A DNA stretch of 64,000 nt. It comes from a virus. The notes beneath the pieces were generated by a model. The model saw only the letters and a program-made list of their open reading frames with translations, was not told the origin of the DNA and did no database searches. A program made the position numbers and the translations under genes. Shown here in pieces: positions 15,692-61,772 of this stretch; position 1 is the first letter of the stretch; every line of letters starts with the position of its first letter. The stretch covers positions 32,001 to 96,000 of the IMG/VR virus record IMGVR_UViG_3300009082_000018. One strand, 5' to 3'.

Positions 15692-15948
15692 TCTTGAAAT
15701 TCAACAATAGCCAACAAGCCAGGTTGTTGGCAGAGCTGACAGGTGATCTGGTTCAAATCGAAGAGGCCGAGATCAAACACCCAACACTTGACCACATGTG
15801 CATGTTGGTTGGCAGTGTGAGAGATGGTGGTCGTACCAAGCTCTGGTTGCGGTTGGAGGAGGTTTCTGAACTGACTTCTGCTGTTGATCCTATTCGTAGA
15901 CCGCCGATTAGAATGAAAAAGAAACCACCACCCATGAGGCAAAAATGA
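15688..15948 (+). CDS. hypothetical protein with C-terminal KKKPPP tail
   Basis: GTGA overlap with the amidase stop. Confidence 0.55.
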   Translation: MILKFNNSQQARLLAELTGDLVQIEEAEIKHPTLDHMCMLVGSVRDGGRTKLWLRLEEVSELTSAVDPIRRPPIRMKKKPPPMRQK

Positions 15949-16128
15949 GAACCGTGATCATTTTGAAGGCACCAAAGCCGTGAAGTGTAGCAGAAGAGAA
16001 GATCGTCGTCGTCTTCGAGGTGGCTCGCAACTGACGCGTAAGAAGCGTCGACGAAATCGTATGCTGCGTCTGGTTCTCACTAGACGAAATCGCAGGGTAC
16101 AGCGACAACAACTGGCCCAAGAGGAATT

Positions 16129-16896
16129 ATGATCAAGCAACCTCCCCCTGTTCGACCTCCGGTGAAAGGCTGGAAACAGGCGCCTGGCGGCAAGATTTTC
16201 ACCGGGGACTGCATCGACATGCTCAAAGAGCTGAGTTCAGAGTCTGTTGATCTGTCAATCTTCGATCCCGCCTACGAAAGCCTGGAGAAGCATCGAGCTG
16301 TCGGATCGAAGACCAGGCTCAAGCACTCCAAGGCCTCCAGCAACGATTGGTTCACGACCTTCCCCAACGCCCGATACGGGGAGCTGTTCCAGCAGCTCTT
16401 CCGAGTGATGAAGCCAGGGACTCACATCTACATGTTCTGCGACGAGGAGACTCGCGACGTGGTGACCTGTGGCTGGTCTCCTCAATCTCCGAATGTCAAC
16501 CTCGGTTTCTCACCCATCCTGGCCGCCGGCTTCAAGTACTGGAAGGCTCTCATCTGGGACAAGATGATCGCCGGCATGGGCTATCATTATCGAGCCCAGC
16601 ACGAATTCATCGTTATGGCTGAGAAGATCGTGAGAGTGAACAAGCACCGGCAGCTAAACGATCTAGGACCAGGTGACGTCCTCCAGCATCGTCGCCTCAA
16701 GGGACCGGATTACTACCCGACGGAGAAGCCTCGAGAGTTGATCGAGCTGTTGGTGAAGCAGTCGTCGAATACAGGTGACACGGTGCTTGATATGTTCGCT
16801 GGTTCTGGTGTGGTGGGTCAGGTCTGCCAGGACATCGATCGTCGTTTCATCCTGGGTGACATCGACACCAAAGAGATTCGCCTGAGACTCGTATGA
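16129..16896 (+). CDS. N6-adenine/N4-cytosine DNA methyltransferase (beta class)
   Basis: GDC..L, DPAY (motif IV variant), YPTEKP, VLDMFAGSG (motif I). Confidence 0.88.
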   Translation: MIKQPPPVRPPVKGWKQAPGGKIFTGDCIDMLKELSSESVDLSIFDPAYESLEKHRAVGSKTRLKHSKASSNDWFTTFPNARYGELFQQLFRVMKPGTHIYMFCDEETRDVVTCGWSPQSPNVNLGFSPILAAGFKYWKALIWDKMIAGMGYHYRAQHEFIVMAEKIVRVNKHRQLNDLGPGDVLQHRRLKGPDYYPTEKPRELIELLVKQSSNTGDTVLDMFAGSGVVGQVCQDIDRRFILGDIDTKEIRLRLV

Positions 16897-17366
16897 CCAC
16901 GCTCAAGATCACCTTTGATCCCGATACCAAGTTCTGCCAGCTTCGCTTCGGCTACAATAAGCGATTTGCTGAATTCATGAAAAGTGGGATCACTCCTCTT
17001 TCTTATCGGCGCTGGGTGGCAGACAAGAAGTACTGGGAGGTCCACGTCTCGAAGCTGGCTCGTGTGGTCGTGGTGGCCCGTCGCTACTTCGGTCATGTCG
17101 ATTACTCAGAGCTGCCAGGTGGCCTACAGATCGAGCTGGCCATCAGGATGAGTGCCTTCGATGACGTGGAGGCACCGCCCAAGAGGACGGCTTCTACACC
17201 GCACGATGTGCTCTACCTGCTACCCACTGCGCCAATCGAGGTGGTCAAGGCAGCCTATCGAGCCCTGGCTCTTATTCATCACCCAGATCGGGGCGGTGAC
17301 GAGGAAATCCTGAAGGAGATCAACTCTGCTTACGAAACCATCACTGAGGCGAAAAAAGAGGGTTGA
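16893..17366 (+). CDS. J-domain protein with N-terminal HARP-like domain
   Basis: VKAAYRALA..HHPDRGG....EIN.AY; N-terminal F.Y...F...K......RRW....K.W.V. Confidence 0.8.
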   Translation: MTTLKITFDPDTKFCQLRFGYNKRFAEFMKSGITPLSYRRWVADKKYWEVHVSKLARVVVVARRYFGHVDYSELPGGLQIELAIRMSAFDDVEAPPKRTASTPHDVLYLLPTAPIEVVKAAYRALALIHHPDRGGDEEILKEINSAYETITEAKKEG

Positions 17367-17392
17367 CAAACGACCCGACCTAGTTCAAGGAT
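17363..17392 (+). promoter_or_regulatory. candidate sigma70-type promoter of the leader/tRNA operon
   Basis: Perfect TTGACA at 17363-17368. Weak -10 AAGGAT at 17387-17392 (18-nt spacer); AAGGA could instead be the leader SD. Confidence 0.45.
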
Positions 17393-17397
17393 GAAGA

Positions 17398-17553
17398 ATG
17401 ATGTTCCAAGCCGCAAAACGAACAAAGTCGAGCGCCCGGAGTTGGCGCGGGACGTGTTCGTTTAGCGTGCGCCCAGATCATAGCTCGAGGGAATTGGGTA
17501 CCCTGCAGTCTTACCCGAATACCCTCGAGCCCATTGGAGCGCCAGGCGGCTAG
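17398..17553 (+). CDS. attenuator leader peptide (51 aa, MMFQAAKRTKSSARSWRGTCSFSVRPDHSSRELGTLQSYPNTLEPIGAPGG)
   Basis: ATG ATG at 17398/17401, TAG at 17551-17553. Contains all 20 amino acids; the last codons form the antiterminator strand. Not in the supplied ORF track (<60 aa). Confidence 0.7.
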   Translation: MMFQAAKRTKSSARSWRGTCSFSVRPDHSSRELGTLQSYPNTLEPIGAPGG

Positions 17554-17589
17554 GACTCGAGGAAACATAGGACTCGAGAGGCCGCCTGG
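17542..17589 (+). promoter_or_regulatory. antiterminator helix
   Basis: CCAGGCGGCU (17542-51) pairs with GGCCGCCUGG (17580-89): 9 WC + 1 GU. Inner CUCGAG/CUCGAG pair (17556-61/17573-78). Mutually exclusive with the terminator. Confidence 0.75.
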
Positions 17590-17611
17590 GAAACCAAGCG
17601 GCCTTTTTTTT
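17579..17611 (+). terminator. intrinsic terminator directly upstream of the first tRNA
   Basis: AGGCCGCcUGG-GAAA-CCAaGCGGCCU stem followed by a U-tract to 17611. Confidence 0.9.
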
Positions 17612-17616
17612 GTTCT

Positions 17617-17688
17617 GGGTGGTTCGTCCAACTGGAAGGGCCCCGGGCCGTAACCCCGGCTATCTAGGTTCGACTCCTAGACCACCCA
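17617..17688 (+). tRNA. tRNA-Tyr(GUA), atypical: short variable loop, C33
   Basis: GGGTGGT/ACCACCC acceptor; loop CC-GTA-AC; TTCGACT. Confidence 0.75.
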
Positions 17689-17755
17689 TTGGAGATCGAC
17701 TATGTGCTTGCAGGAATTCATGCACCGCTTGAAACAGAGGCTTGAGTCAGATCAA

Positions 17756-17828
17756 GCCTCCGTGGTGCAGCGGCTAGCACACATGGCTTTTACCCATCGA
17801 GACGCAGGTTCGAGTCCTGCCGGGGGCA
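17756..17828 (+). tRNA. tRNA-Lys(UUU)
   Basis: GCCTCCG/CGGGGGC; loop CT-TTT-AC. Confidence 0.85.
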
Positions 17829-17840
17829 CTGAAGGAAGTC

Positions 17841-17912
17841 GGGCTCGAAGTGTTATGGTTGCACAGCGGACTCTTAATCCGACAAGTGAGGGTTCAACTC
17901 CCTCCGGGCCCA
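17841..17912 (+). tRNA. tRNA-Lys(CUU)
   Basis: GGGCTCG/CGGGCCC; loop CT-CTT-AA. Confidence 0.88.
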
Positions 17913-17923
17913 TTGAGAATTGA

Positions 17924-17995
17924 TCCGGGTTAGCCTAGCGGCAAAGGCAGCGCGCTCTGACCGCGCCATCGAAGGTTCGAGTCCTTCACCCGGAA
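17924..17995 (+). tRNA. tRNA-Gln(CUG)
   Basis: TCCGGGT/ACCCGGA; loop CT-CTG-AC. Confidence 0.9.
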
Positions 17996-18006
17996 CTGCG
18001 CAACTG

Positions 18007-18025
18007 GCCCTTGACAATTGAATAG
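18007..18025 (+). promoter_or_regulatory. boxA-like antitermination element
   Basis: GCCCTTGACAATTGAATAG resembles rRNA-operon boxA-containing leader/spacer sequences; the embedded TTGACA has no matching -10. Confidence 0.5.
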
Positions 18026-18041
18026 CTGGTCGTGGTCGTTT

Positions 18042-18116
18042 GGTGAGGTCGTCCAATCGGTAGGACACCAGACTGAAAATCTGGGAACGACGGTTCGACT
18101 CCGTCCCTTGCCACCA
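18042..18116 (+). tRNA. tRNA-Phe(GAA), CCA encoded
   Basis: GGTGAGG/CCTTGCC; loop CT-GAA-AA. Confidence 0.92.
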
Positions 18117-18119
18117 CTT

Positions 18120-18190
18120 GGGCCTGTAGCTTGAAGGTCGAGCCACCGGCTCATAACCGGTTGGTGAGTGTTCGATTCACTCCGGGCCTA
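18120..18190 (+). tRNA. tRNA(CAU), probably Ile2 (lysidine type)
   Basis: GGGCCTG/CGGGCCT with C4-G69 and C5-G68; loop CT-CAT-AA. Confidence 0.8.
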
Positions 18191-18194
18191 TTGA

Positions 18195-18265
18195 TCGGGT
18201 GTCGTCTAACGGTAGGGCCGTGGACTTTGGATCCATGAATAGAGGTTCGACTCCTCTCACCCGAA
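18195..18265 (+). tRNA. tRNA-Gln(UUG)
   Basis: TCGGGTG/CACCCGA; loop CT-TTG-GA. Confidence 0.88.
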
Positions 18266-18267
18266 AA

Positions 18268-18340
18268 CGGGGAGTAGGGCATTGGATGACCCGCTTGCTT
18301 TGGGAGCAAGAATAAGCTGGTTCGATTCCAGTCTCCCCGA
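18268..18340 (+). tRNA. tRNA-Pro(UGG)
   Basis: CGGGGAG/CTCCCCG; loop TT-TGG-GA. Confidence 0.88.
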
Positions 18341-18351
18341 CTGATCTTCAT

Positions 18352-18426
18352 TCCAGAGTAGCTCAAAGGTGGAGCGGCGCCCTGTTAAGGCGATGGCTGG
18401 GGGTTCGAGTCCCTCCTCTGGAGCCA
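18352..18426 (+). tRNA. tRNA-Asn(GUU), CCA encoded
   Basis: TCCAGAG/CTCTGGA, G73; loop CT-GTT-AA. Confidence 0.92.
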
Positions 18427-18438
18427 GTAAAGTTGATC

Positions 18439-18510
18439 CGCCTCGTGGCTCAGTGGTCCGAGCAGTCGGCCGATAACCGACAGGCGAGAGTTCGATTCTC
18501 TCCGAGGCGA
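18439..18510 (+). tRNA. tRNA-Ile(GAU), C33
   Basis: CGCCTCG/CGAGGCG; loop CC-GAT-AA. Confidence 0.87.
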
Positions 18511-18522
18511 AAAGAAGATCAT

Positions 18523-18595
18523 GGCGGACGAAGCCAAACGGTGCGGCGCCTGACTGTGGATCAGGTTCTAGGGGGTTCGACTCCCCTCGTTCGCC
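18523..18595 (+). tRNA. tRNA-His(GUG)
   Basis: G-1/C73; GCGGACG/CGTTCGC; loop CT-GTG-GA. Confidence 0.88.
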
Positions 18596-18696
18596 CTCGC
18601 ACATGTTATGCTCCTGCGCAGGTCTACCAGAGCGGGCCAGATCGCCCTTGAATGGGCGTGGAGGGCGGCGCAGGCGGGCCAGGGCGGGGAGCGCTT

Positions 18697-18768
18697 GGGG
18701 ACGTAGTGATAGCGGGAGCACACGGCGTTCGCAACGCTGAAGTGAGGGTTCGACTCCCTCCGTCTCCA
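18697..18768 (+). tRNA. tRNA-Ala(CGC)
   Basis: G3.U70; loop TT-CGC-AA. Confidence 0.88.
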
Positions 18769-18774
18769 CTCTCT

Positions 18775-18845
18775 GGGCTCATAGTGAAATGGGATCACGC
18801 AGCCTCGGCAAGGCTGAATCCCGGGTTCAACTCCCGGTGGGTCCA
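18775..18845 (+). tRNA. tRNA-Ala(GGC), C33
   Basis: G3.U70; loop TC-GGC-AA. Confidence 0.87.
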
Positions 18846-18850
18846 CTCTT

Positions 18851-18933
18851 GGAGGGTACTGAGGAATGGTCCTCAACATGGTCCGAACCCATGGGCGGCC
18901 GAAAGACCGGGCGTTCGATTCGTCTACCCTCCG
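18851..18933 (+). tRNA. tRNA-Ser(CGA), C33
   Basis: GGAGGGT/ACCCTCC, G73; long variable arm; loop TC-CGA-AC. Confidence 0.85.
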
Positions 18934-18961
18934 CTGATTGTTGATCTGAAAATTGTACCAT

Positions 18962-19032
18962 GGACGCGGAAGCTGTCGGATGGCTGACCGGCTGTCTACC
19001 GGTTGAAGAGGGTTCAACTCCCTTCGCGTCCG
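18962..19032 (+). tRNA. tRNA-Asp(GUC)
   Basis: GGACGCG/CGCGTCC, G73; loop CT-GTC-TA (U37). Confidence 0.83.
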
Positions 19033-19033
19033 C

Positions 19034-19107
19034 CGCAGGGTTGAGGAGAGGTCTACCTCGCCTGGCTCATAACCAGGAGCACGTTGGTTCAAATCCAACC
19101 CCTGCTA
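19034..19107 (+). tRNA. tRNA(CAU), initiator fMet-like
   Basis: C1xU72 mismatch, CGCAGGG start; loop CT-CAT-AA; only two of the three usual anticodon-stem GC pairs. Confidence 0.78.
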
Positions 19108-19109
19108 GC

Positions 19110-19181
19110 GCGGTTGAGGTGTTTGTGGTTGCACGCGGCGTTGCCAACGCTGAAGACAGGGTTCGACTCCCTGCAGCCGCA
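19110..19181 (+). tRNA. tRNA-Gly(GCC)
   Basis: GCGGTTG/CAGCCGC; loop TT-GCC-AA. Confidence 0.87.
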
Positions 19182-19183
19182 AC

Positions 19184-19256
19184 GCCGGAGGTCGAGGGTT
19201 CAAATCCCTCCAGGCTCCCGCAAGGGACCTGTAGCTCAGTCAGGTAGAGCACCGGC
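19184..19256 (+). ncRNA. free-standing circularly permuted tRNA-like RNA (YrlA-type effector domain without Ro stem)
   Basis: GCCGG, AGGTC, T arm (GAGGG TTCAAAT CCCTC), acceptor closed by a GCAA loop, TA, D arm (GCTC...GAGC), A, CCGGC. Confidence 0.8.
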
Positions 19257-19260
19257 TTCT

Positions 19261-19345
19261 GGAAGGTGACCCGTAATGGTACGGGAGCTGGTTGCTAACC
19301 AGTCAGGGGGTAACGCCCCAGCAGGTTCGATTCCTGCACCTTCCG
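19261..19345 (+). tRNA. tRNA-Ser(GCU)
   Basis: GGAAGGT/ACCTTCC; long variable arm; loop TT-GCT-AA. Confidence 0.88.
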
Positions 19346-19352
19346 CCGGATT

Positions 19353-19436
19353 GGAGAGCGAGAAGCAGGGTGCGCAACTGCGTTGGAAGCGCAGGAGGGT
19401 TGAAAGGCCCGCTGGGTTCGATTCCCAGGCTCTCCG
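19353..19436 (+). tRNA. tRNA-Ser(GGA)
   Basis: GGAGAGC/GCTCTCC; long variable arm; loop TT-GGA-AG; weak D arm. Confidence 0.82.
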
Positions 19437-19529
19437 CTAGATGAGTCGACTGACACGGAGACGGCAGCTGATCCCGGTCCCCAAGGGCGTCTTACGGCTG
19501 ACGGGCTGTCAGAGCACGACTCATCGCAT

Positions 19530-19601
19530 GCGGGTGAGATGTTAACGGTTGCATGTCAGTCTTCCAAACTGAATGACGGAGTTCAACTCTCCGCACCCGC
19601 A
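19530..19601 (+). tRNA. tRNA-Gly(UCC)
   Basis: GCGGGTG/CACCCGC; loop CT-TCC-AA. Confidence 0.88.
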
Positions 19602-19615
19602 CCGTATAGTTGATC

Positions 19616-19694
19616 CGGGATGTAGCTCAGCCAGGGAGAGCGCTCGCTTCGGGAGCGAGAGGTTTCGTGGGTTCGAACCCCACCATCCCGACCA
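19616..19694 (+). tRNA. tRNA-Pro(CGG), CCA encoded
   Basis: CGGGATG/CATCCCG; loop TT-CGG-GA. Confidence 0.92.
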
Positions 19695-19696
19695 AT

Positions 19697-19770
19697 GCCA
19701 AGGTAGCCCAACAGGAAGTGGCACACGCCTCAGGCGCGTGACAGTGAGGGTTCGAATCCCTTCCTTGGCA
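19697..19770 (+). tRNA. tRNA-Leu(CAG), short variable loop
   Basis: GCCAAGG/CCTTGGC, A73; loop CT-CAG-GC. Confidence 0.85.
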
Positions 19771-19775
19771 TCTTC

Positions 19776-19847
19776 GCCGCCAAAGCGTAAAGGGTGACGC
19801 GCCGGCTTCGTACACCGGAGAACCCAGTTCAACTCTGGGTGGCGGCT
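19776..19847 (+). tRNA. tRNA-Thr(CGU)
   Basis: GCCGCCA/TGGCGGC; loop TT-CGT-AC. Confidence 0.84.
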
Positions 19848-19849
19848 CT

Positions 19850-19982
19850 GGGTGGACCGACAGAGGTTGGATTATCCATGCTAAGGACGAGGTCGCGGGT
19901 TCGAATCCCGTCGGGCTCCTTCGGGGGCCCGTGGCTCAGCGGTAGAGCGCGTAAAACTCCAGCTTCAACCCCTTGTTCACCC
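19850..19982 (+). ncRNA. YrlA-type Y RNA (Ro60-binding stem plus permuted tRNA domain)
   Basis: GGGUGGAC-C(bulge)-GA / UU-GUUCACCC helix; second stem AGGUUGGA/UCCAGCUU; T arm, acceptor closed by a UUCG loop, D arm in permuted order. Confidence 0.88.
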
Positions 19983-19986
19983 TACT

Positions 19987-20057
19987 GCCGGATGATGACT
20001 CCTGGGGAGTCAGCGCACTTGTAAGGCGCCAGGGCGGTTCGACTCCGACATCCGGCT
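19987..20057 (+). tRNA. tRNA-Thr(UGU), atypical D arm
   Basis: GCCGGAT/ATCCGGC; loop CT-TGT-AA; D region can form the 7-bp stem TGACTCC/GGAGTCA. Confidence 0.75.
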
Positions 20058-20069
20058 CTGATCTGAAAT

Positions 20070-20141
20070 GGCCTTGTCTGCTAACGGTAGGCAACCTGGT
20101 TCTCACCCAGGAAACGATGGGTTCAACTCCCTCCAAGGTCA
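20070..20141 (+). tRNA. tRNA-Glu(CUC), bulged T stem
   Basis: GGCCTTG/CAAGGTC; loop TT-CTC-AC. Confidence 0.84.
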
Positions 20142-20146
20142 CTGAC

Positions 20147-20218
20147 GGCCCCATCTGCTAACGGTAGGCACCGTGGTTTTCACCCACGCAACGGCGGGTT
20201 CAACTCCCCCTGGGGTCA
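20147..20218 (+). tRNA. tRNA-Glu(UUC), bulged T stem
   Basis: GGCCCCA/TGGGGTC; loop TT-TTC-AC. Confidence 0.84.
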
Positions 20219-20222
20219 CTGA

Positions 20223-20295
20223 GGGCGCTTCGTCTAGCGGCAAGGACCCCTGCTCGACACGCAGGTGATCGCCGGTTCGAGTCCGGCAGTGCCCA
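20223..20295 (+). tRNA. tRNA-Val(GAC), C33
   Basis: GGGCGCT/AGTGCCC; loop TC-GAC-AC. Confidence 0.87.
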
Positions 20296-20299
20296 CTTC

Positions 20300-20371
20300 G
20301 GGGAGTTGGTGAAACTGGGATCACACGGCCCTTGCACGGCTGGATCAGGGGTTCAAATCCCCTACTCTCCA
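20300..20371 (+). tRNA. tRNA-Ala(UGC)
   Basis: G3.U70; loop CT-TGC-AC. Confidence 0.9.
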
Positions 20372-20437
20372 CTACCTGCACAGGTCATTGCCGATATGAC
20401 TAGTCTGTCAGAAGGGATGGTCTGTGCGGGGTCGATT

Positions 20438-20510
20438 GCCGCCAAAGTCCACGTGGTCGGGACGCCTGCTTGGTACGCAGGAGGGCAGAGTTCGATTCTC
20501 TGTGGCGGCT
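20438..20510 (+). tRNA. tRNA-Thr(GGU)
   Basis: GCCGCCA/TGGCGGC; loop TT-GGT-AC. Confidence 0.86.
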
Positions 20511-20568
20511 CCGCTGATTATCAGCATTTCACTTATGAAGATCACTGATAATCACTGATGAGACTGAT

Positions 20569-20639
20569 GGGGTTGAGGCTGAGGTAGCCGGACGGTCTCC
20601 AAAACCGTCGTCGAGGGGGTTCGATTCCCTCCAACCCTG
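20569..20639 (+). tRNA. tRNA-Trp(CCA)
   Basis: GGGGTTG/CAACCCT, G73; loop CT-CCA-AA. Confidence 0.85.
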
Positions 20640-20644
20640 CTGAT

Positions 20645-20715
20645 GAGTCCGTGTCCGAGAGGCGAGGTACCTGGCTGCAACCCAGGTCACGGGGGTTCAA
20701 ATCCCTCCGGACTCT
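20645..20715 (+). tRNA. tRNA-Cys(GCA)
   Basis: GAGTCCG/CGGACTC, U73; loop CT-GCA-AC. Confidence 0.88.
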
Positions 20716-20720
20716 CTGAT

Positions 20721-20796
20721 GCACCCGTGGTCCAAAGGATGGGCACCGGTCCTCTAAACCGGATCCATGCTGGTTCGAGTCCAGCCGGGTGTGCCA
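20721..20796 (+). tRNA. tRNA-Arg(UCU), C33, CCA encoded
   Basis: GCACCCG/CGGGTGT; loop CC-TCT-AA. Confidence 0.88.
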
Positions 20797-20797
20797 A

Positions 20798-20870
20798 GGT
20801 CCCGTGGTCTAAAGGATGGGCACCTGTTTCCTAAACAGGATCAATGCAGGTTCGAGTCCTGCCGGGATCA
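20798..20870 (+). tRNA. tRNA-Arg(CCU)
   Basis: GGTCCCG/CGGGATC; loop TT-CCT-AA. Confidence 0.88.
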
Positions 20871-20874
20871 CTGA

Positions 20875-20948
20875 GCTGCGATAGTGTAGGGGACTCTGCA
20901 CGGTGCTCTCCGAAAGCACAGGTCTGGGCTCGACTCCCAGTCGCAGCA
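20875..20948 (+). tRNA. tRNA-Arg(CCG), C54
   Basis: GCTGCGA/TCGCAGC; loop CT-CCG-AA; T loop CTCGACT. Confidence 0.82.
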
Positions 20949-20950
20949 TT

Positions 20951-21023
20951 GGGCGGTTCTCCTAGCGGAATGGAACCTGACCTACACTCAGGAATAATGG
21001 GGGTTCAACTCCCTCACCGCCCA
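20951..21023 (+). tRNA. tRNA-Val(UAC), C33
   Basis: GGGCGGT/ACCGCCC; loop CC-TAC-AC. Confidence 0.83.
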
Positions 21024-21027
21024 TCAT

Positions 21028-21099
21028 CTGCCCATGGTCTAAAGGAAGGGCCCCTGACTACGGATCAGGTGCATGCAGGTTCGAGTCCTGCTGGGCAGG
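21028..21099 (+). tRNA. tRNA-Arg(ACG)
   Basis: CTGCCCA/TGGGCAG; loop CT-ACG-GA. Confidence 0.88.
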
Positions 21100-21105
21100 C
21101 TACAC

Positions 21106-21180
21106 GCCGGGGTGGCGCAAATGGAAGATCGCTCCAGACTTAGGATCTGGCTGTTGAGGGTTCGAATCCCTTCCCCGGTA
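21106..21180 (+). tRNA. tRNA-Leu(UAG), short variable loop
   Basis: GCCGGGG/CCCCGGT; loop CT-TAG-GA. Confidence 0.86.
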
Positions 21181-21183
21181 CTT

Positions 21184-21257
21184 GGCAGCAGGGAGGAGAG
21201 GGACTCCTCACCGCTCTCATAAAACGGGAATTGCTGGTTCGATCCCAGCTGCTGCCA
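21184..21257 (+). tRNA. tRNA(CAU), probably elongator Met
   Basis: GGCAGCA/TGCTGCC fully paired; loop CT-CAT-AA. Confidence 0.75.
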
Positions 21258-21260
21258 CGA

Positions 21261-21333
21261 GCCCTCGTAGCCCAAGAGGAAGCGGCATCGCCTTAAAAGC
21301 GATCAAGTGGGGGTTCGAGTCCCTCCGGGGGCA
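21261..21333 (+). tRNA. tRNA-Leu(UAA), short variable loop
   Basis: GCCCTCG/CGGGGGC; loop CT-TAA-AA. Confidence 0.85.
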
Positions 21334-21336
21334 CAC

Positions 21337-21409
21337 CGAGGAGTAGGGCATTGGATGACCCGCTCGGATGGGGTCCGAGAGCAAGCTGGTTCGATTCCAG
21401 TCTCCTCGA
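21337..21409 (+). tRNA. tRNA-Pro(GGG)
   Basis: CGAGGAG/CTCCTCG; loop AT-GGG-GT; D and T arms identical to Pro(UGG). Confidence 0.85.
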
Positions 21410-21418
21410 TCTTGATAT

Positions 21419-21492
21419 GCCAGGGTAGCCCAATCGGTAGTGGCACCAGCCCGAGGCGCTGGACAGTGTGGGTTCGAATCCCATCCCTGGTA
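21419..21492 (+). tRNA. tRNA-Leu(GAG), C33, short variable loop
   Basis: GCCAGGG/CCCTGGT; loop CC-GAG-GC. Confidence 0.85.
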
Positions 21493-21496
21493 CTAT

Positions 21497-21571
21497 GGCG
21501 CGGTAGCCCAACTGGTAGGAGGCACCGGCCTCAAGCTCCGGACAGTGAGGGTTCGAATCCCTCTCGCGCTA
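21497..21571 (+). tRNA. tRNA-Leu(CAA), short variable loop
   Basis: GGCGCGG/TCGCGCT; loop CT-CAA-GC. Confidence 0.84.
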
Positions 21572-21611
21572 CGACTTGTGAAAACGACCACGATCTGCTA
21601 TTGGTGCAATC

Positions 21612-22121
21612 ATGCAAACGCTCGTACTCGACCAAGGCTACCAGCCGATCAACACCGTCCCTTGGACCAAGGCGATGGGATACATCGCCCGTGGCAAGGT
21701 CGACGTGCTGGAGGAGTACGAGCAGGAGGTCCACTTCAACATGGGCATGCCGGCGGTGGTGAGGCTCAACCATCGCATCAGTGCCAGCAAGAAGAGGATC
21801 AAGTTCTCTCGTCAGAATGTGCTGGCGAGGGACAAGTTCAGTTGCCAGTACTGCGGCGCCCACGGACGTGACGTGGTTCTAACCTTCGATCACATCATCC
21901 CCAGGTCTCGGGGTGGTCGAACAGAGTGGGAGAACATCGTCATGGCCTGCCAGGAGTGCAATGCACGAAAGGCTGACCTGACGCTGAGAGAATCGGGAAT
22001 GCGTCTGCGGACGCAGCCTGTTCGACCGACGTGGGTGCCCACTTTCAACGTCGCTCTGCGGGATGCTGGCAACATCCCACCAGAGTGGCGGAACTACTGG
22101 ACAACAGAGCTGCAGCCGTAG
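21612..22121 (+). CDS. HNH endonuclease (McrA-like family)
   Basis: TLVLD.GY.P; SR.NVL.RD...CQYCG; T.DHIIPRSRGG...WEN.V.AC..CN..KA. Confidence 0.92.
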   Translation: MQTLVLDQGYQPINTVPWTKAMGYIARGKVDVLEEYEQEVHFNMGMPAVVRLNHRISASKKRIKFSRQNVLARDKFSCQYCGAHGRDVVLTFDHIIPRSRGGRTEWENIVMACQECNARKADLTLRESGMRLRTQPVRPTWVPTFNVALRDAGNIPPEWRNYWTTELQP

Positions 22122-22184
22122 AACCTTGTCCGGAATACTTCCTTGTCCTCTACGTAGCGGACAGGGAGGAAAACCGGACAACTT

Positions 22185-22267
22185 GGAGGGTGCCGCCGGT
22201 TGGTTGGCAACACGGTTTGAACCCGTGGGTGGTCGCAAGGCTAGGGGTTCGACTCCTCCACCCTCCG
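22185..22267 (+). tRNA. tRNA-Ser(UGA)
   Basis: GGAGGGT/ACCCTCC, G73; long variable arm with GCAA loop; loop TT-TGA-AC. Confidence 0.85.
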
Positions 22268-22310
22268 CTCTTCCCGCCAAATCCTTCATGATTATTTTTG
22301 ATTCTTTTGC

Positions 22311-22338
22311 TTGACAAAGAATCATTCATAGGGATAAT
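22311..22338 (+). promoter_or_regulatory. sigma70-type promoter for the Y RNA-Ro60 unit
   Basis: TTGACA-N16-GATAAT with an AT-rich upstream tract; predicted start coincides with the 5' end of the first Y RNA. Confidence 0.7.
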
Positions 22339-22343
22339 AGGAT

Positions 22344-22432
22344 CATGAGGGACCGACTGAGTTAGGTTATCAAACTCTCACTTTGATTGGGGCCTCTGGC
22401 CCCGCTCCTAGCTCAACAACTTGTTCCTCATG
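22344..22432 (+). ncRNA. short Y RNA (Ro60-binding stem, no tRNA domain)
   Basis: CAUGAGGGAC-C-GA / UU-GUUCCUCAUG; second stem UGAGUUAGG/CCUAGCUCA; followed by U6. Confidence 0.82.
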
Positions 22433-22453
22433 TTTTTTGATCTGAAAAGGAGA

Positions 22454-22586
22454 ATTGAGGGACCGACGATTTGGGTTACCTTGGACCTGTTGGGGCTGGT
22501 TCAATTCCAGCTCGGTCACTTAGGTGATCGATAGTGTAGAGGCAGCACAGCAGGAGTGTTCCCAGATCAACAACTTGTTCCTCAAT
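22454..22586 (+). ncRNA. YrlA-type Y RNA (Ro60-binding stem plus permuted tRNA domain)
   Basis: AUUGAGGGAC-C-GA / UU-GUUCCUCAAU; GAUUUGGG/CCCAGAUC; T arm GCUGG UUCAAUU CCAGC, closed acceptor, D arm GUGU...GCAC. Confidence 0.88.
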
Positions 22587-22599
22587 CTTTATTGGCTGT

Positions 22600-22670
22600 G
22601 AGAGTGGACCGCTGATCTTGGGTTACCTTCTTTGGTGAACAACCCCAGGGTCGATCTTTTGTTCGCTCTC
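22600..22670 (+). ncRNA. short Y RNA-like element in the Ro60 leader
   Basis: GAGAGUGGAC-C-G / U-GUUCGCUCUC; GAUCUUGGG/CCCAGGGUC; shares GGUUACC with the other copies. Confidence 0.75.
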
Positions 22671-22696
22671 CTTTTGTTCGCCCATGGAGGTGGACC

Positions 22697-24298: not shown

Positions 24299-24301
24299 CT
24301 C

Positions 24302-24511: not shown

Positions 24512-24634
24512 CTGTTGCTGCTGCCTAGGTCTCCAGCAGGTCCCACACCATCCCTAGAGATGACGTTTCCGTGCTCGTCCACGTCCACGTTCAGTGCTGG
24601 CAGCTCACCACTGCTGATGTAGTTTCCAATTCTC

Positions 24635-26926: not shown

Positions 26927-26936
26927 AATGATCTCC

Positions 26937-52628: not shown

Positions 52629-52631
52629 GGT

Positions 52632-53100: not shown

Positions 53101-53101
53101 C

Positions 53102-56071: not shown

Positions 56072-56075
56072 AGGA

Positions 56076-57509
56076 TTATGGTGGTCCTACTTGTACCCGT
56101 GGCGGGCGACTGATCGTAGTCTTCTTCAAAGGTGGTGGCTTCTTTTGGATCGTCGGTACGGTGATGATCTTCTCGCCGCTCTTGTTGAATTCCACCGTCG
56201 GGTCGTAGAAGCACATGCGCTCGAGGTCTGTCTGAATCTGGACCATGACGCCCCTGGGACCGTTGCGGTTCTTGGCCAGCAGAAGCCTCATGATGCCTTC
56301 CTTGGCCTCTTTCGGAGTCTGGTTGATGGTGACCAGGAGGTCGGTGTGCATGGCCTTGCCGATGTCCTCCGACGTGTCCTCCTCGTCGTGGGTTTCCTTG
56401 GCATAGGCGGCCCGGCGGCTCTGGGTGGCTGAGATGAGAGGCACATCGAACTCACCAGCCAAGTTACGCAGGCCCAGCGTGATCTCTGTGAGCTGCTCTC
56501 GCTTCTCCAAGCGCAGGTCGTGGCTCTTCACCAGGTCCAGATAGTCGACCAGGATGAGGTCTGGTATGAATCCAGATCCAATGCACTTCTCTATGTGGGC
56601 CCGGATGGTGTGGATAGTGGGCGCATGCATCGGGTAGTACTTGATGATCAAGCTATTGCCAAAGACCTTGCCCATGTCGCCCAGTGCAGTAGCTAGTTCC
56701 GCTTCCTGGTCCACTAGGTCTTTGACCTTGATCCTGGAGAACGAGGCATCGTAGCGCTCAGCTACCTCGTCCTCGCTCAACTCCATGGTGTAGTGCAGTA
56801 CCTTCTTCTTGAAGATCACCGCTCGCTTGCCGCAGTGGACCAGAGCGATAGACTTGCCTCGAGATGTAGGGGCCATCCACAGAAAAAGCTGCCGGGCCTT
56901 GACGCCTCCACCCATTAACTCGTCCAGCTCGGTGATACCCGTGGGCATGATCTTCATCTGCTGCCGGATGATTCGATTGGCAATGCGCTCGGCGTAGCTG
57001 ATGAAGTACTGGCTGCCGATGTCGTTAACTGAGGTCCCGACCCGAAGTGCCTTCGAAAGCAGACTTTCGATCTCGTCGAAGGCTGTATCGTCTGTAGCAG
57101 TCCTGGTGAGCAGGGGTGGAACCTCGAGGATGGCCTTCTTGATCGCCTGGTGGCGGCAGAAGGTGGAGATCTCCTCTATGATGTAGACTTTGTTGTCGAC
57201 AGGTTCCTTGATCTTCTTGTAGACCTCAAGGAACGAGTGAACCTCAGCGGACTTGATCCTGTTGTTGGTTGAGTCCTTCTTCAACTCGTTACGAAGAGCG
57301 ATGTCGTCCATCCTCATCTGATAGTTTCGATAGTAGGAACGAAAAGTCTCGAAGTACCAGGCGAGAATGCCGTCGGCAAAGTAGGCCGACTCGACGATGT
57401 CTTGAGCGAGGAGAAGGAACTCGAAGTCCTTCATCATCAGAGCCAGGACTTTGATTTGGAAGTCCCGGCTGAACGAGAATTTGGAAGTTGCCACTGAGGA
57501 TCCTTTCAA
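56076..57509 (-). CDS. DnaB-like (T4 gp41-type) replicative helicase
   Basis: PTG..ELD..GG, APTSRGKS, TME, VDYLD, ATQ.RR, AKNRNG. Confidence 0.92.
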   Translation of the reverse strand: MKGSSVATSKFSFSRDFQIKVLALMMKDFEFLLLAQDIVESAYFADGILAWYFETFRSYYRNYQMRMDDIALRNELKKDSTNNRIKSAEVHSFLEVYKKIKEPVDNKVYIIEEISTFCRHQAIKKAILEVPPLLTRTATDDTAFDEIESLLSKALRVGTSVNDIGSQYFISYAERIANRIIRQQMKIMPTGITELDELMGGGVKARQLFLWMAPTSRGKSIALVHCGKRAVIFKKKVLHYTMELSEDEVAERYDASFSRIKVKDLVDQEAELATALGDMGKVFGNSLIIKYYPMHAPTIHTIRAHIEKCIGSGFIPDLILVDYLDLVKSHDLRLEKREQLTEITLGLRNLAGEFDVPLISATQSRRAAYAKETHDEEDTSEDIGKAMHTDLLVTINQTPKEAKEGIMRLLLAKNRNGPRGVMVQIQTDLERMCFYDPTVEFNKSGEKIITVPTIQKKPPPLKKTTISRPPRVQVGPP

Positions 57510-57546
57510 GACTCCGCATGGCGTGGGAACAAAACATCGGTCCCGA

Positions 57547-60126: not shown

Positions 60127-60169
60127 ACTCCGTACTCCGTAGCTATAGATCGCGCGCACGCGCGCGTTT

Positions 60170-60850
60170 TTATTTATTACTATCTCTTCTTTCTTCTTTA
60201 CTTTGATCTTCTTTTAAGATTGATCTTAATGGATAGAACTCTTCCCCCTTCGGGGGAAGAGATTCTACTGATCCCCTGGAAGGGAAGCCGGCAACAGGTG
60301 AACAATTGAGATTCTTTGAGAATTGTCCACGTAGATCCTTATTTCTTCTGACAATCTCAGCCGCGACCGATTTCGTTGGAGGAGGGCTCTTTTTGATGGG
60401 CGCGGGAGAAGATTCAGGATCCACGCCCTCGCCGGCTGCAATCTTAAGCTCTTTCGCCAGCTTCTGGATCTCGTCGTCCTCAACCACGTCAGTGGAGACG
60501 GACTTCTGGGACGGACTCTCCTGACGTACGTCTACTAGGTCCGTCTCTAGAGACGGACTTCCGTGACGTGGTTCCGGCCAGGAAGGCTGCCTCTGGAACT
60601 TGAGGGAGGAGGAAGCAGACCAGCGAGCCTGCCGGTTCGAGTGGTCAGAGGTGACGAGCTTGTGGGTCCACTCGAGGTCGGCGAGCCAGCGCTCGATTGT
60701 GCGGTACCCGAGTCCGGTCATGCCGGCTAGCTCGGTTTTGGTAAGGGAACGATCGTGCCAGAGGAGGAGCAGAAGGAGAAGCTTGGGTCCAGGTTTGATG
60801 CTTGTGTCAGCGATTGGGTTTCCAAGTTGATCCATTTTTCGCCACAGCAC
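60170..60850 (-). CDS. HTH DNA-binding protein, possible replication initiator
   Basis: KLLLL.L......T..ELA..TGL..RTI.R.L..L winged HTH plus disordered tail. Confidence 0.6.
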   Translation of the reverse strand: MLWRKMDQLGNPIADTSIKPGPKLLLLLLLWHDRSLTKTELAGMTGLGYRTIERWLADLEWTHKLVTSDHSNRQARWSASSSLKFQRQPSWPEPRHGSPSLETDLVDVRQESPSQKSVSTDVVEDDEIQKLAKELKIAAGEGVDPESSPAPIKKSPPPTKSVAAEIVRRNKDLRGQFSKNLNCSPVAGFPSRGSVESLPPKGEEFYPLRSILKEDQSKEERRDSNK

Positions 60851-61074
60851 ACGCGCAAAGACCCCCGCCCCCTGGTCTCATAAGAACCAGGATCACACTG
60901 GACTCCAAGGAAGACCAAAGGGCTGGTTACCAGGGTTTGGGGGATATGGTGTGTCTGTGCCTCCTTGGGTACAGTTGTTGGTTCTTATGAGGCCTCCAGC
61001 GTCTCATGGGCATGTAGGCCTCGTCAATACCTATTGCACAACATACTACTAGTATTGATCTTTTTCCTTCTGTC

Positions 61075-61103
61075 TTGACACCTCTTCCGTGACCACTTAC
61101 GGT
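61075..61103 (+). promoter_or_regulatory. sigma70-type promoter
   Basis: TTGACA-N17-TACGGT upstream of the lone plus-strand gene. Confidence 0.55.
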
Positions 61104-61130
61104 AACGTGGTACACCTGAGAGATACAATC

Positions 61131-61772
61131 ATGGGTAGACCTCGGAAGATTAAGAAGAAACCGCCACCCGTTCCACCAGGGCAGCTGATGCAGCGCCCTC
61201 GCAAGGGATCTCTTGACGAGATTACCGATAGGCGTCAGCAGGTTATACGACTGCGGCTCCGAGGCATGGGGTATCGTGCCATTGCCAAGGAGTTGGGTGT
61301 CGGGCACATGACTGTCAAGCGGGACCTCGAGGCCATCTCCGAGGAGACCCGTACCAAGATGGGCAAGCTCGAGAAGGACTACGTGCTGGCTCAGTCCCTG
61401 TCGGTGTACGAGGAGATTGAGACACAGGCCTGGGACCAGTTTTCCAAGAGCGCTCCTGGCTCCACCCAGCGGGCCAACTTCCTGCAGGTGGTACGGGCGG
61501 CGCGCAATGACCAGGCCAAGTTGTTGATGGACATCGGCCTCATCTCCAAGACACCCCAGGAAGTGCGGCACGTCGTGACCTCGAAGGTGATCGAAGGCTG
61601 GACGCCGGCAGCTCAAGACCTTGTGGCACTGGCGATCATCAAGGCCGGGCTCACGCCGGCCATGGAGCCTATTCCCGATACCAATCAGCTTCCTGCTTCC
61701 TTCCCATCGGTGATCGATGCTCCACCAGACAGCGATGAGGACGAAGAAGAGCAAGAGGCCCCCGCTACGTGA
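61131..61772 (+). CDS. HTH protein, possible terminase small subunit
   Basis: RR.QV..LR..G..YR.IA..LGV...TV.RD followed by helical R....AKL..G segment. Confidence 0.6.
   Translation: MGRPRKIKKKPPPVPPGQLMQRPRKGSLDEITDRRQQVIRLRLRGMGYRAIAKELGVGHMTVKRDLEAISEETRTKMGKLEKDYVLAQSLSVYEEIETQAWDQFSKSAPGSTQRANFLQVVRAARNDQAKLLMDIGLISKTPQEVRHVVTSKVIEGWTPAAQDLVALAIIKAGLTPAMEPIPDTNQLPASFPSVIDAPPDSDEDEEEQEAPAT

Follow-up and report, generated by a model that had tools for sequence, protein, structure and literature searches.

A basic, proline-rich terminal tag on DNA-handling proteins of an uncultured ~110-kb phage: a possible tether to phage DNA

SPKK and other (S/T)PXX units bind the minor groove of A/T-rich DNA. 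The terminal protein of phage phi29 is reportedly targeted to the nucleoid through its basic N-terminal domain, and NLS-like signals are said to be present in phage terminal proteins. DddA-type deaminases are described as requiring C-terminal SPKK-related motifs for activity on dsDNA, and an AT-hook can replace them (PMC9935910). In the account given of T4 gp32, the LAST sequence, (Lys/Arg)3(Ser/Thr)2 at N-terminal residues 3–7, docks on a neighbouring DNA-bound gp32 and resembles residues of the ssDNA trough (PMC12424627). The acidic C-terminal tip of bacterial SSB is presented as a hub for partner proteins, while a model involving its PxxP linker and the OB-fold is disputed (PMC7145534, PMC10164576, PMC8881015). 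Ku of Mycobacterium smegmatis is reported to have PAKKA repeats in a lysine-rich, low-complexity tail that modulates its DNA binding (PMC3553676).

The 64,000-nt stretch analysed here (the window) corresponds to G000:C1:32001-96000 in a virus record of 109,593 bp from an uncultured phage of ~110 kb. Our own gene model comprises 146 genes (33,069 aa). Many of its DNA-handling proteins have a short basic, proline-rich tag, mostly at an end. All 12 instances in the first-pass annotation are present, in frame, in real or conserved ORFs. They are as follows, together with a related SSB repeat.

15910-15945, plus strand: C-terminal tag RMKKKPPPMRQK-stop of the 86-aa ORF 15688-15948, of unassigned function; the G001 orthologue (62% identity) ends KRTPPPMRKK-stop
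16129-16161, plus strand: N-terminal tag MIKQPPPVRPP of the N6/N4 DNA methyltransferase 16129-16896
26299-26358, minus strand: N-terminal double tag MQKTPPKIKPKTTPPPAKTN of the 70-aa ORF 26146-26358; the G001 orthologue begins MIKTPPKVKPKVAPPT
29720-29755, minus strand: N-terminal tag EIKKNPPPKRTA of the large terminase (TerL) 27902-29764, followed by KRTAVKIK and TRQAVKIKK
30396-30425, minus strand: C-terminal tag VEKRPPPRRA-stop of the RuvC-like Holliday-junction resolvase 30393-30971
39458-39490, minus strand: N-terminal tag MPKTPPGKKPP of the RecA/UvsX-like recombinase 38360-39490
40607-40639, minus strand: tag AAKAPPGKKPP inside the gp32-like SSB 40199-41584, in its disordered linker
40310-40339, minus strand: K-x-P-G-K repeats (KKAPGKPPGKPAPGKAPGK) of the same SSB, close to its C-terminus and disordered in the model (residues 417-444)
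41628-41660, minus strand: C-terminal tag PARKPPMKRPQ-stop of the 'UvsY-like' protein 41625-42266
54068-54103, minus strand: N-terminal tag DIKKTPPPLGPR of the CobS/MoxR-like AAA+ ATPase 53102-54109, whose PHROG match starts at residue 47
56118-56150, minus strand: C-terminal tag IQKKPPPLKKT of the DnaB-like helicase 56076-57494, followed by a degenerate second copy, ISRPPRV
60365-60400, minus strand: internal tag PIKKSPPPTKSV of ORF 60170-60835 (possible HTH protein), at position 148 of 221, in a coding frame
61146-61181, plus strand: N-proximal tag KIKKKPPPVPPG (residue 20) of the HTH protein 61089-61772 (possible small terminase)

Two look-alikes outside that annotation were rejected. At 58917, KISKMPPPRSR is read in a frame that is locally non-coding by the codon-score plot, and IKPPPD in 37735-38286 is lacking from the orthologue. 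Two of the names above have weak support: the 'UvsY-like' protein matches T4 UvsY at E 0.11-0.18 in a PDB profile search, and the Pfam HTH matches of ORF 60170-60835, for which no orthologue was found, are at E 0.02-0.2, below the family cut-offs.

Judged by sequence, the tag can be written [IV]-K-K-x-P-P-P-x-[KR] and would be a portable short linear motif of disordered N- and C-terminal extensions. Among 27 PPP-type instances, position −4 is I in 9, V in 5 and M in 2; −2 is K in 23 and +2 is R or K in 18. The residue directly before PPP is more varied (K 9, T 6, R 5, N 3). Nine conserved tags have PPP, RecA and SSB have PPG and the UvsY-like protein has PPM. In DnaB tails and TerL heads the tag is found in duplicate.

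The tags resemble the SPKK-related units of histone H1, sperm H2B and DddA in being short, basic, proline-containing and often duplicated, and in being attached to an end of a protein that acts on DNA, away from its catalytic fold. At the same termini, related lineages carry K-R-T-P-V-K-I-K and K-K-S-P-V-R-K-K, and the relaxed form (K/R)-(S/T)-P-x-(K/R) is found there. The tags differ by their P-P-P core, the conserved I/V at −4 and the presence of around a dozen carriers in one genome. None of 14 tag segments has a strict S/T-P-K/R-K/R unit; [ST]P[KR][KR] occurs 6 times proteome-wide against 2.4-3.0 expected, a count reached by 19 and 41 of 500 shuffles. Neither the AT-hook core R-G-R-P nor any G-R-P is present in the tag segments.

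As with LAST, these are short basic terminal peptides in a system with a gp32-type SSB (core match by Foldseek, E 1e-8). LAST, however, belongs to the SSB and serves cooperativity between SSB molecules, whereas the tags are on other enzymes and consist of 2-3 basic residues, one variable residue and prolines, with no (S/T)2. The N-terminus of this SSB (M-A-x-K-x-D...K-K-A-A-E-E) has neither a LAST-type unit nor the tag. The likeness to the bacterial SSB hub would be that many genome-maintenance proteins are gathered around ssDNA by a single short disordered peptide, but the polarity is reversed: here it is a basic peptide on the putative clients. The SSB does have an acidic amphipathic tip, found in all 23 aligned SSBs with L449 and M453 invariant, and also in the tagless G003, G005, G006 and G007. 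The Ku tail is likewise a K/P/A-rich terminal extension, though with long repeats on a single protein rather than a fixed-order unit of 9-12 residues across many. In the phi29 case a basic segment on a phage replication protein serves for placement on cellular DNA, but it is a folded domain on one protein and not a short motif on many.

The tag is a real, peptide-level motif that is terminal, class-biased, conserved and lineage-flavoured. The proteome of our gene model was shuffled 2000 times in each of three ways, over whole proteins, in 15-aa blocks and in 10-aa blocks. [KR][KR].?PPP occurs 9 times, against 0.10, 0.72 and 0.81 expected respectively, and the broader [KR]{1,2}.?PP[PGM], for which a composition-matched count had been proposed, 19 times against 2.28, 4.93 and 5.62; neither count was reached by any of the 2000 shuffles in any control. 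The gene model has 14 PPP tripeptides, 10 of them with K or R among the four preceding residues; the other four belong to a fibre-like protein, to two unknowns and to the acidic linker of CobT. The enrichment was replicated in G001 (12 instances against 0.98 by global and 3.13 by local shuffling) and in G002 (7 against 0.46 and 0.93), with 0/1000 shuffles reaching the count in either.

Ten of the 12 tags are within 25 aa of a terminus (3.35 expected, P = 3.5e-5), five of them in the first 15 codons and four in the last 20. As first described for most of them, they are in extensions beyond the domains matched by Pfam and PHROG profiles. Pfam N6_N4_Mtase covers residues 40-251 of the methyltransferase and Pfam RecA residues 28-309 of the recombinase; the PHROG terminase match begins at residue 71 of TerL, PHROG 1770 takes in residues 5-171 of the 192 of the RuvC-like protein, and HTH_23 and other Pfam families cover residues 36-80 of 61089-61772. 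In DnaB, where PHROG 19 spans residues 4-439 of 472, the tag is 18 residues before the C end. The tagged stretch of the SSB (residues 281-330) has AlphaFold pLDDT of 33-37.

Tags are present on 8 of 22 annotated nucleic-acid-handling proteins and on 0 of 54 structural/lysis-block and nucleotide-synthesis proteins (Fisher P = 1.7e-5, with class labels partly assigned in this analysis), and the reported absence from structural, lysis and nucleotide-synthesis proteins is thereby borne out. All 12 tags are among the 59 genes of 15688-61772, with none among the other 87 (P = 9e-6).

The tags are shared with orthologues from three related contigs. In G001 the methyltransferase begins MIKTPPPKPAP, with different codons, and the RuvC-like protein ends EKRPPPRR-stop (G002, GKTPPPRRPIRRASRI-stop). 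The RecA/UvsX-like protein starts MPTKSPPGKKPP in G001 and MPKQPPKKKIP in G002; the UvsY-like protein ends RKPPMRKP-stop and KRPPGKRPPGSEA-stop, respectively. The SSB tag is retained in G001, P0121 and P0122 and lost in G002, and KK-x-PGKK is broadly retained across the SSB family. The TerL tag is kept in orthologues, with a PP-type tag in 7 of the 8 closest homologues. In L095 the 14 residues of the CobS/MoxR-like tag region are identical despite 4 synonymous codon changes. In an alignment of 11 homologues, P453, P454 and P465 of the DnaB tail are invariant, with K451 conserved to at least 90%, while the rest of the tail is unalignable. Since Pro and Lys codons vary between instances and between orthologues and the residues are kept, this is a peptide motif and not a DNA repeat, and shuffle enrichment and orthologue conservation together support a selected peptide-level signal.

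Relatives at 34-59% identity are without PPP tags, and G003, G005 and L099 have no tag hits. The RecA and UvsY-like proteins of tagless relatives still have plain basic ends; at least 3 K/R are present within the last 15 residues in 67 of 70 UvsY-like tails (among homologues listed). Of TerL homologues in the 58-66% identity band, 29 of 37 have [KR][ST]P-hydrophobic-x-[KR] in their first 45 residues, for instance KRTPVKIK. RuvC tails in relatives include RRTPVRIKR-stop and KKSPVRKKAT-stop, (K/R)-(S/T)-P-x-(K/R) is also found on RuvC-like tails and HTH heads in L131, L132, L133, L135 and L142, and the orthologues of the HTH protein 61089-61772 in L131, L135 and L142 begin M-x-R-T-P-V-x-K. The PPP tag is one lineage flavour of a broader family of basic terminal motifs, which goes beyond the first-pass reading. 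Its apparent forms are (K/R)(K/R)-[ST]-P-x-(K/R)-hydrophobic-(K/R) and (K/R)(K/R)-K-A-A-K-hydrophobic, and other flavours are K-R-T-P-V-K-I-K, K-S-P-V-R-K-K, R-K-A-A-K-V and also RRRPK. The relatives using this arm family are a group of ~110-kb myoviruses.

Different proteins within one genome have a common flavour. L132 has KSPVRIKR on TerL and KKSPVRKK on RuvC; L133 has KRTPAKL and RRTPVRIKR; L136 has KKRKAAKL on TerL and RRRKAAKV on SSB; L099/G004 have RTPYTK, M[RK]TPFR[RK] and RRQPFKQT.

The reading that we prefer, tentatively and with a probability of about 0.45, is that the tag is a portable basic arm by which the enzymes of DNA transactions are tethered to phage DNA or to DNA coated by SSB. 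A positive, proline-stiffened arm would keep replication, recombination, methylation and packaging enzymes on replicating phage DNA. Like an SPKK/H1-type unit or another lysine-rich tail, it could contact nucleic acid directly; alternatively, like the LAST peptide, it could dock on the gp32-like SSB at acidic surfaces that mimic DNA. We infer both the binding partner of the tag and its effect. Support comes from the H1/SPKK-like units at the same termini in related lineages, from the terminal location outside domains and from the carriers' work on DNA, the only trait common to them (methyltransferase, TerL, HTH/TerS-like, RuvC-like, RecA, SSB, UvsY-like and DnaB). The suggestion that the tag is a localisation or recruitment signal fits this evidence; no result points to the replication/packaging compartment that was part of it. 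A winged-helix protein of the same genome, 45858-46532, has a long K/A/P-rich, H1-like tail, which also favours tethering.

Several features count against a tether. The CobS/MoxR-like ATPase is not known as a DNA-binding protein, and the tag is absent from many other proteins of this phage that act on DNA (PolA, primase, SbcCD, RNase H, three SF2 helicases, ParB-like, NYN and HNH). Sister lineages lack the tag on DnaB, methyltransferase and CobS. S or T directly precedes the first P in just 4 of the 12 tagged proteins (ORF 26146, RecA, CobS and ORF 60170), and the strict SPKK-type unit is lacking. The fixed order and the hydrophobic −4 position (I or V in 14 of 27) are more typical of a groove-fitting peptide than of a non-specific DNA arm. 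For flavours shared within a genome, the simplest explanation is a protein reader that co-evolves with the tags, DNA being invariant.

The tag may be a ligand for one specific, co-evolving protein reader other than DNA, encoded by phage or host; this we regard as possible though rather unlikely, and we are equally doubtful of the associated idea that the tags are an address label bringing together the enzymes of replication, recombination and packaging. In its favour are, besides motif order and anchor, the duplicated copies in DnaB tails and TerL heads and the joint gain or loss of the tag across proteins, as in the three genomes with no hits. TerL heads and RuvC tails of the same genome are also more alike than when permuted (similarity sum 194 vs 153.8, P = 0.00034), though this is for 9 genomes with approximately three flavour groups among them and is uncorrected for kinship. 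Against it, the flavours (PPP, TPVK, KAAK, RRRPK) have little in common beyond charge and Pro/Ala, as do non-specific DNA-binding tails. A proline-binding hub, as had been proposed, is possible, but no domain of SH3/WW/GYF/EVH1 type was found by Pfam among 99 window proteins, or in 8 re-scanned at E up to 1, the search being of phage proteins only.

Degrons are usually exposed terminal peptides and DnaK binds basic proline-rich peptides, so that the tag might instead be a degron, or a recognition peptide for DnaK/J or an AAA+ protein, that times activity or turnover. A J-domain protein (16893-17366, Pfam DnaJ E 5.9e-9) does adjoin the tagged methyltransferase and the phage encodes a MoxR/CobS-CobT pair. 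However, the J-domain protein is also present in the tagless L099, G003, G004 and G005, the copies in SSB and ORF 60170 are internal and the AAA+ ATPase is itself tagged. Such a handle is improbable.

A role in translation, in which PPP/PPG near ORF ends imposes EF-P dependence or couples through ribosome pausing, is highly improbable. PPP and PPG are described as stalling motifs rescued by EF-P, with Thr before PPP suppressing stalling and Arg promoting it (PMC4176338). Such motifs are present in the tags, five tags being in the first 15 codons and four in the last 20, and the phage's 41 tRNAs include three tRNA-Pro genes. That tRNA set is, however, nearly complete and not Pro-specific, and the mixed −1 residue shows no consistent tuning. 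The I/V, the K-K and the trailing K/R are also conserved though unneeded for stalling, the bias is to DNA proteins, and the corresponding termini in related lineages have a basic motif that lacks consecutive prolines. With the flanks conserved and PPP replaced there by T-P-V-K or K-A-A-K, the translational checkpoint that had been put forward is unsupported. Pairing with the RBS was a separate candidate and is also unsupported; the 5 N-tagged genes have no consistent RBS occlusion (MFE ranks 115, 138, 99, 33 and 19 among 140 other genes).

DNA-binding proteins are described as often having basic tails of low complexity (PMC3553676, PMC6821194), but that the tag is a functionless, neutral by-product of K/P-rich disordered tails is scarcely credible given the local block shuffles (0.7-0.8 vs 9 observed, 0/2000), the invariant prolines within unalignable tails, the residues kept through synonymous changes and the replication in G001 and G002, and the first-pass annotation's own ground for giving up the signal, composition alone with neither class bias nor conservation, fails on all three counts.

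Twelve proteins encoded in the window carry a short basic-proline peptide with the consensus [IV]-K-K-x-P-P-P-x-[KR]: ORFs 15688, 26146 and 60170, a methyltransferase, the large terminase TerL, a RuvC-like protein, a RecA/UvsX-like protein, a gp32-like SSB, a UvsY-like protein, a CobS/MoxR-like ATPase, DnaB and the HTH protein at 61089. The tag is real and under selection: phage DNA enzymes carry a system of terminal motifs whose flavour varies by lineage. Every named instance is in frame and lies in an ORF that either has a family annotation or is conserved in a relative. The pattern [KR][KR].?PPP occurs nine times, and the expectation is 0.10 when whole proteins are shuffled, 0.72 with shuffling in 15-residue blocks and 0.81 in 10-residue blocks; none of 2000 shuffles attains nine in any of the three controls. 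Counted against shuffled proteins in the same way, the looser pattern of the first-pass annotation gives 19 versus 2.28, 4.93 and 5.62, and again 0 of 2000 shuffles attain it. Since the controls fall so far below what is observed, K/P-rich tail composition is not the explanation of the K-K-x-P-P-P order. There are 14 PPP tripeptides in the gene model, ten with K or R just upstream and four in non-basic contexts. Ten of the 12 tags are within 25 residues of a terminus (3.35 expected, P = 3.5e-5), and none overlaps a Pfam or PHROG profile match. The claim that the tag marks DNA-handling proteins is borne out, as it is present on 8 of 22 nucleic-acid-handling proteins and on 0 of 54 from the structural/lysis block and nucleotide synthesis (Fisher P = 1.7e-5, with class labels that are partly the analyst's own). 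Two look-alikes are not tags: the frame at 58917 is non-coding there, and the one within 37735-38286 is unconserved.

The gene model is based on codon scores and holds 146 genes (33,069 aa), its doubtful spots having been checked by frame plot and by homology to related contigs. Ten of the 12 tagged proteins have orthologues that back the gene starts called by the codon-score model; no orthologue of ORF 60170 was found, and those of HTH 61089 are distant. The name UvsY-like reflects weak profile matches (E 0.11-0.18) and gene position. The window spans bases 32001-96000 of one virus record 109,593 bp long. Tail sheath, baseplate and fibre genes on the left arm identify a tailed phage, and replication, recombination, nucleotide-metabolism and packaging genes form a long block, mainly on the minus strand. 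The host is a bacterium, since a peptidoglycan amidase and an SLT domain are encoded. Species genomes scanned with TerL and with Ro60 yielded no relative, and the TerL proteins of the closest cultured phages are only ~31% identical.

Features in and around the tagged block (window coordinates)
16893-17366: protein of 157 aa whose J domain is C-terminal (Pfam DnaJ E 5.9e-9); its gene overlaps the stop codon of the tagged methyltransferase (16129-16896)
17616-22268: dense tRNA array of 41 genes that between them serve nearly every amino acid, three being for Pro and two for Lys (ARAGORN)
20875-20948: additional tRNA from Rfam
22697-24298: Ro60/TROVE plus vWA protein (Pfam E 2.3e-55), adjoining the tRNA array
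27644-27892, minus strand: KTSC-domain protein (Pfam E 1.7e-9) immediately downstream of TerL, kept in G001, G002 and L129
40199-41584: SSB, with an extra acidic domain of ~80 residues at 331-412 that has four conserved cysteines and a predicted pLDDT of 81-93
45858-46532: winged-helix protein of 224 aa, whose codon score relative to length is the highest of the block
50204-54109: CobT-like vWA protein (622 aa) and the CobS/MoxR-like AAA+ ATPase, among replication genes

It is the peptide and not the nucleic acid that is maintained. Pro and Lys codons vary between tags, and orthologous tags retain their residues through synonymous changes. The 14-residue tag of the CobS-like ATPase is identical in the related metagenome contig L095 despite four silent differences. 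A DNA-level repeat is ruled out, as codons differ both among instances and among orthologues. So is occlusion of ribosome binding sites by CCN-rich codons, the five genes tagged at the N-terminus being no more structured than the other 140; pairing of such codons with a Shine-Dalgarno sequence (SD:CCUCC) is found at the methyltransferase start only.

Conservation in related phages, which the original observation set as a check, holds in two IMG/VR contigs, G001 (PolA 85% identical) and G002 (PolA 63%), and in L095 (DnaB 71%). Alignment queries were needed to find related viral contigs; single CobS-like and DnaB protein queries found none. The tag is kept in orthologues of the methyltransferase, ORF 15688, TerL, the RuvC-like protein and ORF 26146, likewise in those of the CobS-like ATPase and DnaB, and also in those of RecA, the UvsY-like protein and SSB, where the copy is gone in G002. 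The enrichment is repeated in 38 proteins of G001 (12 versus 0.98 and 3.13) and in 17 of G002 (7 versus 0.46 and 0.93), with 0 of 1000 shuffles attaining the count in each. Among 120 listed DnaB homologues, a PP-type tag is present in the last 45 residues of 9 of the 20 closest, and in 2 of 40, 1 of 33 and 1 of 27 in the more distant bands. In an alignment of 11 tagged DnaBs (48-79% identity), P453, P454 and P465 are invariant and K451 is nearly so, in a tail that is otherwise unalignable. Relatives whose orthologues are 34-59% identical (G003, G005, L099) have zero tag matches, their RecA heads and UvsY-like tails being basic all the same. Around distant DnaB genes, 76 of 80 IMG/VR loci (~1.1 Mb) are without [KR][KR].?PP[PGM] in ORFs of at least 60 aa, the expectation there being reduced because G+C is lower. 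One DnaB subclade (P0021, P0034, P0035, P0037, P0040, P0053, P0087) has a different common C-terminal peptide, ...S-P-x-T-G-G-L-I-R-T*, which points to an exchange of tail motifs between lineages. [Intein-like insertions were met in the same families: in TerL of G002 (L007:4453-7443; 996 versus 620 aa, Pfam PF14890), in the CobS-like ATPase of L095 (L095:3435-5297; 620 versus 335 aa) and in the DnaB proteins P0011, P0035 and P0059 (~800 aa; PF05203, PF05204, PF14528). The window's own three copies are uninterrupted.]

As judged from sequence comparison, PPP is just one of several flavours in which a wider terminal motif occurs. In the heads of 120 TerL homologues, flavours sort with relatedness. 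Seven of the eight closest have I-K-K-x-P-P-P or K-K-T-P-P-K; in the next band, (K/R)-(S/T)-P-hydrophobic-x-(K/R), typically K-R-T-P-V-K-I-K, occurs once to three times in 29 of 37; of the remaining 75, zero to three have either motif and many start with K-R-K-P-x-R-K-A-A-K instead. The window TerL has K-R-T-A-V-K-I-K and T-R-Q-A-V-K-I-K-K immediately after its PPP. No match to the TerL head was found among PDB sequences. In the UvsY-like family a basic, proline-containing C-terminal tail is nearly universal, with at least three K/R in the last 15 residues in 67 of the 70 tails printed. Within loci around TerL genes, and in L099/G004, each genome's flavour is common to several of its proteins.

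Flavours within single genomes
L129: TerL I-K-R-M-P-P-P; RuvC-like tail R-R-P-P-A-R-K
L132: K-S-P-V-R-I-K-R; K-K-S-P-V-R-K-K
L133: K-R-T-P-A-K-L; R-R-T-P-V-R-I-K-R
L135: K-R-T-P-V on TerL, the RuvC-like tail and the head of an HTH protein
L136: TerL K-K-R-K-A-A-K-L; SSB R-R-R-K-A-A-K-V
L099/G004: TerL R-T-P-Y-T-K; methyltransferase M-[RK]-T-P-F-R-[RK]; DnaB R-R-Q-P-F-K

When TerL heads and RuvC tails of nine genomes were scored by their best-matching 6 residues and pairings were permuted, the same-genome sum was 194 versus a permutation mean of 153.8 (P = 0.00034, uncorrected for shared ancestry and with ~3 flavour groups among the nine), so that flavour matching of the two proteins within genomes is suggestive only. 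Away from the tagged block, classical T-P-K-K units stand at the start of two functionally unassigned proteins, 12020-12619 (M-T-T-P-I-T-P-K-K-P) and L008:1988-2263 (M-A-D-T-P-K-K-R-K).

From a selected terminal motif on DNA enzymes we infer binding to DNA or to SSB. The tag would be a tether, its exposed, positively charged and proline-stiffened arms holding enzymes of replication, recombination, methylation and packaging to phage DNA or SSB-coated DNA; this reading is tentative, with a probability of roughly 0.45. It is favoured because carriers of known function all act on DNA, because of the character of the arms, because related flavours resemble histone H1 or SPKK-type units, and because an H1-like protein and a gp32-type SSB are encoded and there are three precedents. 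The first is dsDNA deamination by DddA-type enzymes, which is reported to require SPKK-related C-terminal motifs whose prolines are needed and for which an AT-hook can substitute (PMC9935910). Lysine-rich repeats are described as modulating DNA binding by mycobacterial Ku (PMC3553676), and the basic LAST peptide of T4 gp32, according to PMC12424627, docks on adjacent DNA-bound gp32 and is like residues lining its ssDNA trough. The tag system resembles basic DNA-binding arms and SSB-centred hubs, though it is outside every defined motif family tested. No description of shared tags on phage DNA enzymes was found in the open full-text literature, a body to which most subscription journals do not belong. 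The tag is no general requirement for work on DNA, since the same phage has many DNA enzymes that lack it (PolA, primase, SbcCD, RNase H, three helicases, ParB-like, NYN and HNH proteins).

The SSB core is gp32-type in an AlphaFold model (Foldseek E 1e-8 to RB69 and T4 gp32); the protein also possesses a long linker and a conserved tip, both acidic. The internal tag is not docked on any domain (pLDDT 33-37) in this model, which has no bearing on binding in trans. The cysteine-rich SSB domain is present in tagged G000 (the window's record), G001 and G002 and absent from tagless G003, G005, G006 and G007; the domain, retained in most of 22 aligned homologues, also occurs in many SSBs down to 43% identity, so that no strict link to the tag follows. 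In the protein at 45858-46532, the N-domain matches winged-helix families weakly (MksE, Nse1, Mrr_N; E 0.003-0.007) and is 88% identical in G001; the tail is long, K/A/P-rich and H1-like.

The main rival, that the tag is instead a ligand for one co-evolving protein reader, is possible, with the odds rather against it. The fixed motif order, the duplication of tag copies and the conserved I/V at position -4 from the prolines (in 14 of 27 instances) speak for such a reader, most strongly so the sharing of flavours by different proteins of one genome; against it, domains of SH3, WW, GYF or EVH1 type are absent among the 99 window proteins scanned. Doubtful to a like degree is a lineage-specific address code, by which one co-evolving reader would draw a dozen enzymes of replication, recombination, methylation and packaging together in a single DNA factory, each lineage having its own flavour (KKxPPP, KRTPVKIK, KSPVRKK, RKAAKV, RTP[FY]RK) and the reader being perhaps the gp32-like SSB filament, a condensate on that filament, or a host factor. 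A handle for a chaperone or for degradation is unlikely. Unlikely as well is the translational checkpoint that had been suggested with the original observation: selection extends to residues that stalling does not need, and relatives retain the tag position without consecutive prolines. Thr before PPP is reported to suppress stalling and Arg to promote it (PMC4176338); the preceding residue varies (K in 9, T in 6 and R in 5 of 27 instances), with no clear pattern of tuning in either direction. Neutral K/P composition is the least credible, no shuffle in 2000 having attained the observed counts.

If a tether or address label is what the tag provides, it shows how a phage without a known compartment can bring its enzymes of replication, recombination, DNA modification and packaging together on the phage DNA by means of one reusable 10-residue module. 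There would then be a simple sequence rule predicting which proteins of unknown function act at phage DNA, for instance ORFs 15688, 26146 and 60170, and covering also the CobS/CobT pair, which is widespread in phages. The lineage flavours are a natural experiment for finding a reader, and the module could serve phage engineering in laboratory strains as a small portable DNA-factory tag. An address code, if true, would give bacterial viruses a counterpart to the signals that target proteins to organelles or factories.

Within the CobT/CobS pair, which adjoins a sigma-70-region-2 protein (49668-50207), the basic tag is on the ATPase only and the CobT-like protein has an acidic proline-rich linker, AEPPPEEE. 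A 515-aa protein (48143-49690), checked by atlas look-up as a possible shell or portal, gave weak matches to unnamed phage clusters only. Thirty-five tRNAs of the array are at Rfam gathering score, and a permuted 'tmRNA*' called by ARAGORN at 18024-18644 is probably spurious because it overlaps several of them. No Y-RNA-like family reached gathering score within 16000-27000. The Ro60/TROVE gene is probably a recent gain, since it is missing at the syntenic position in G001. The J-domain protein is kept in every relative examined, tagged or untagged.
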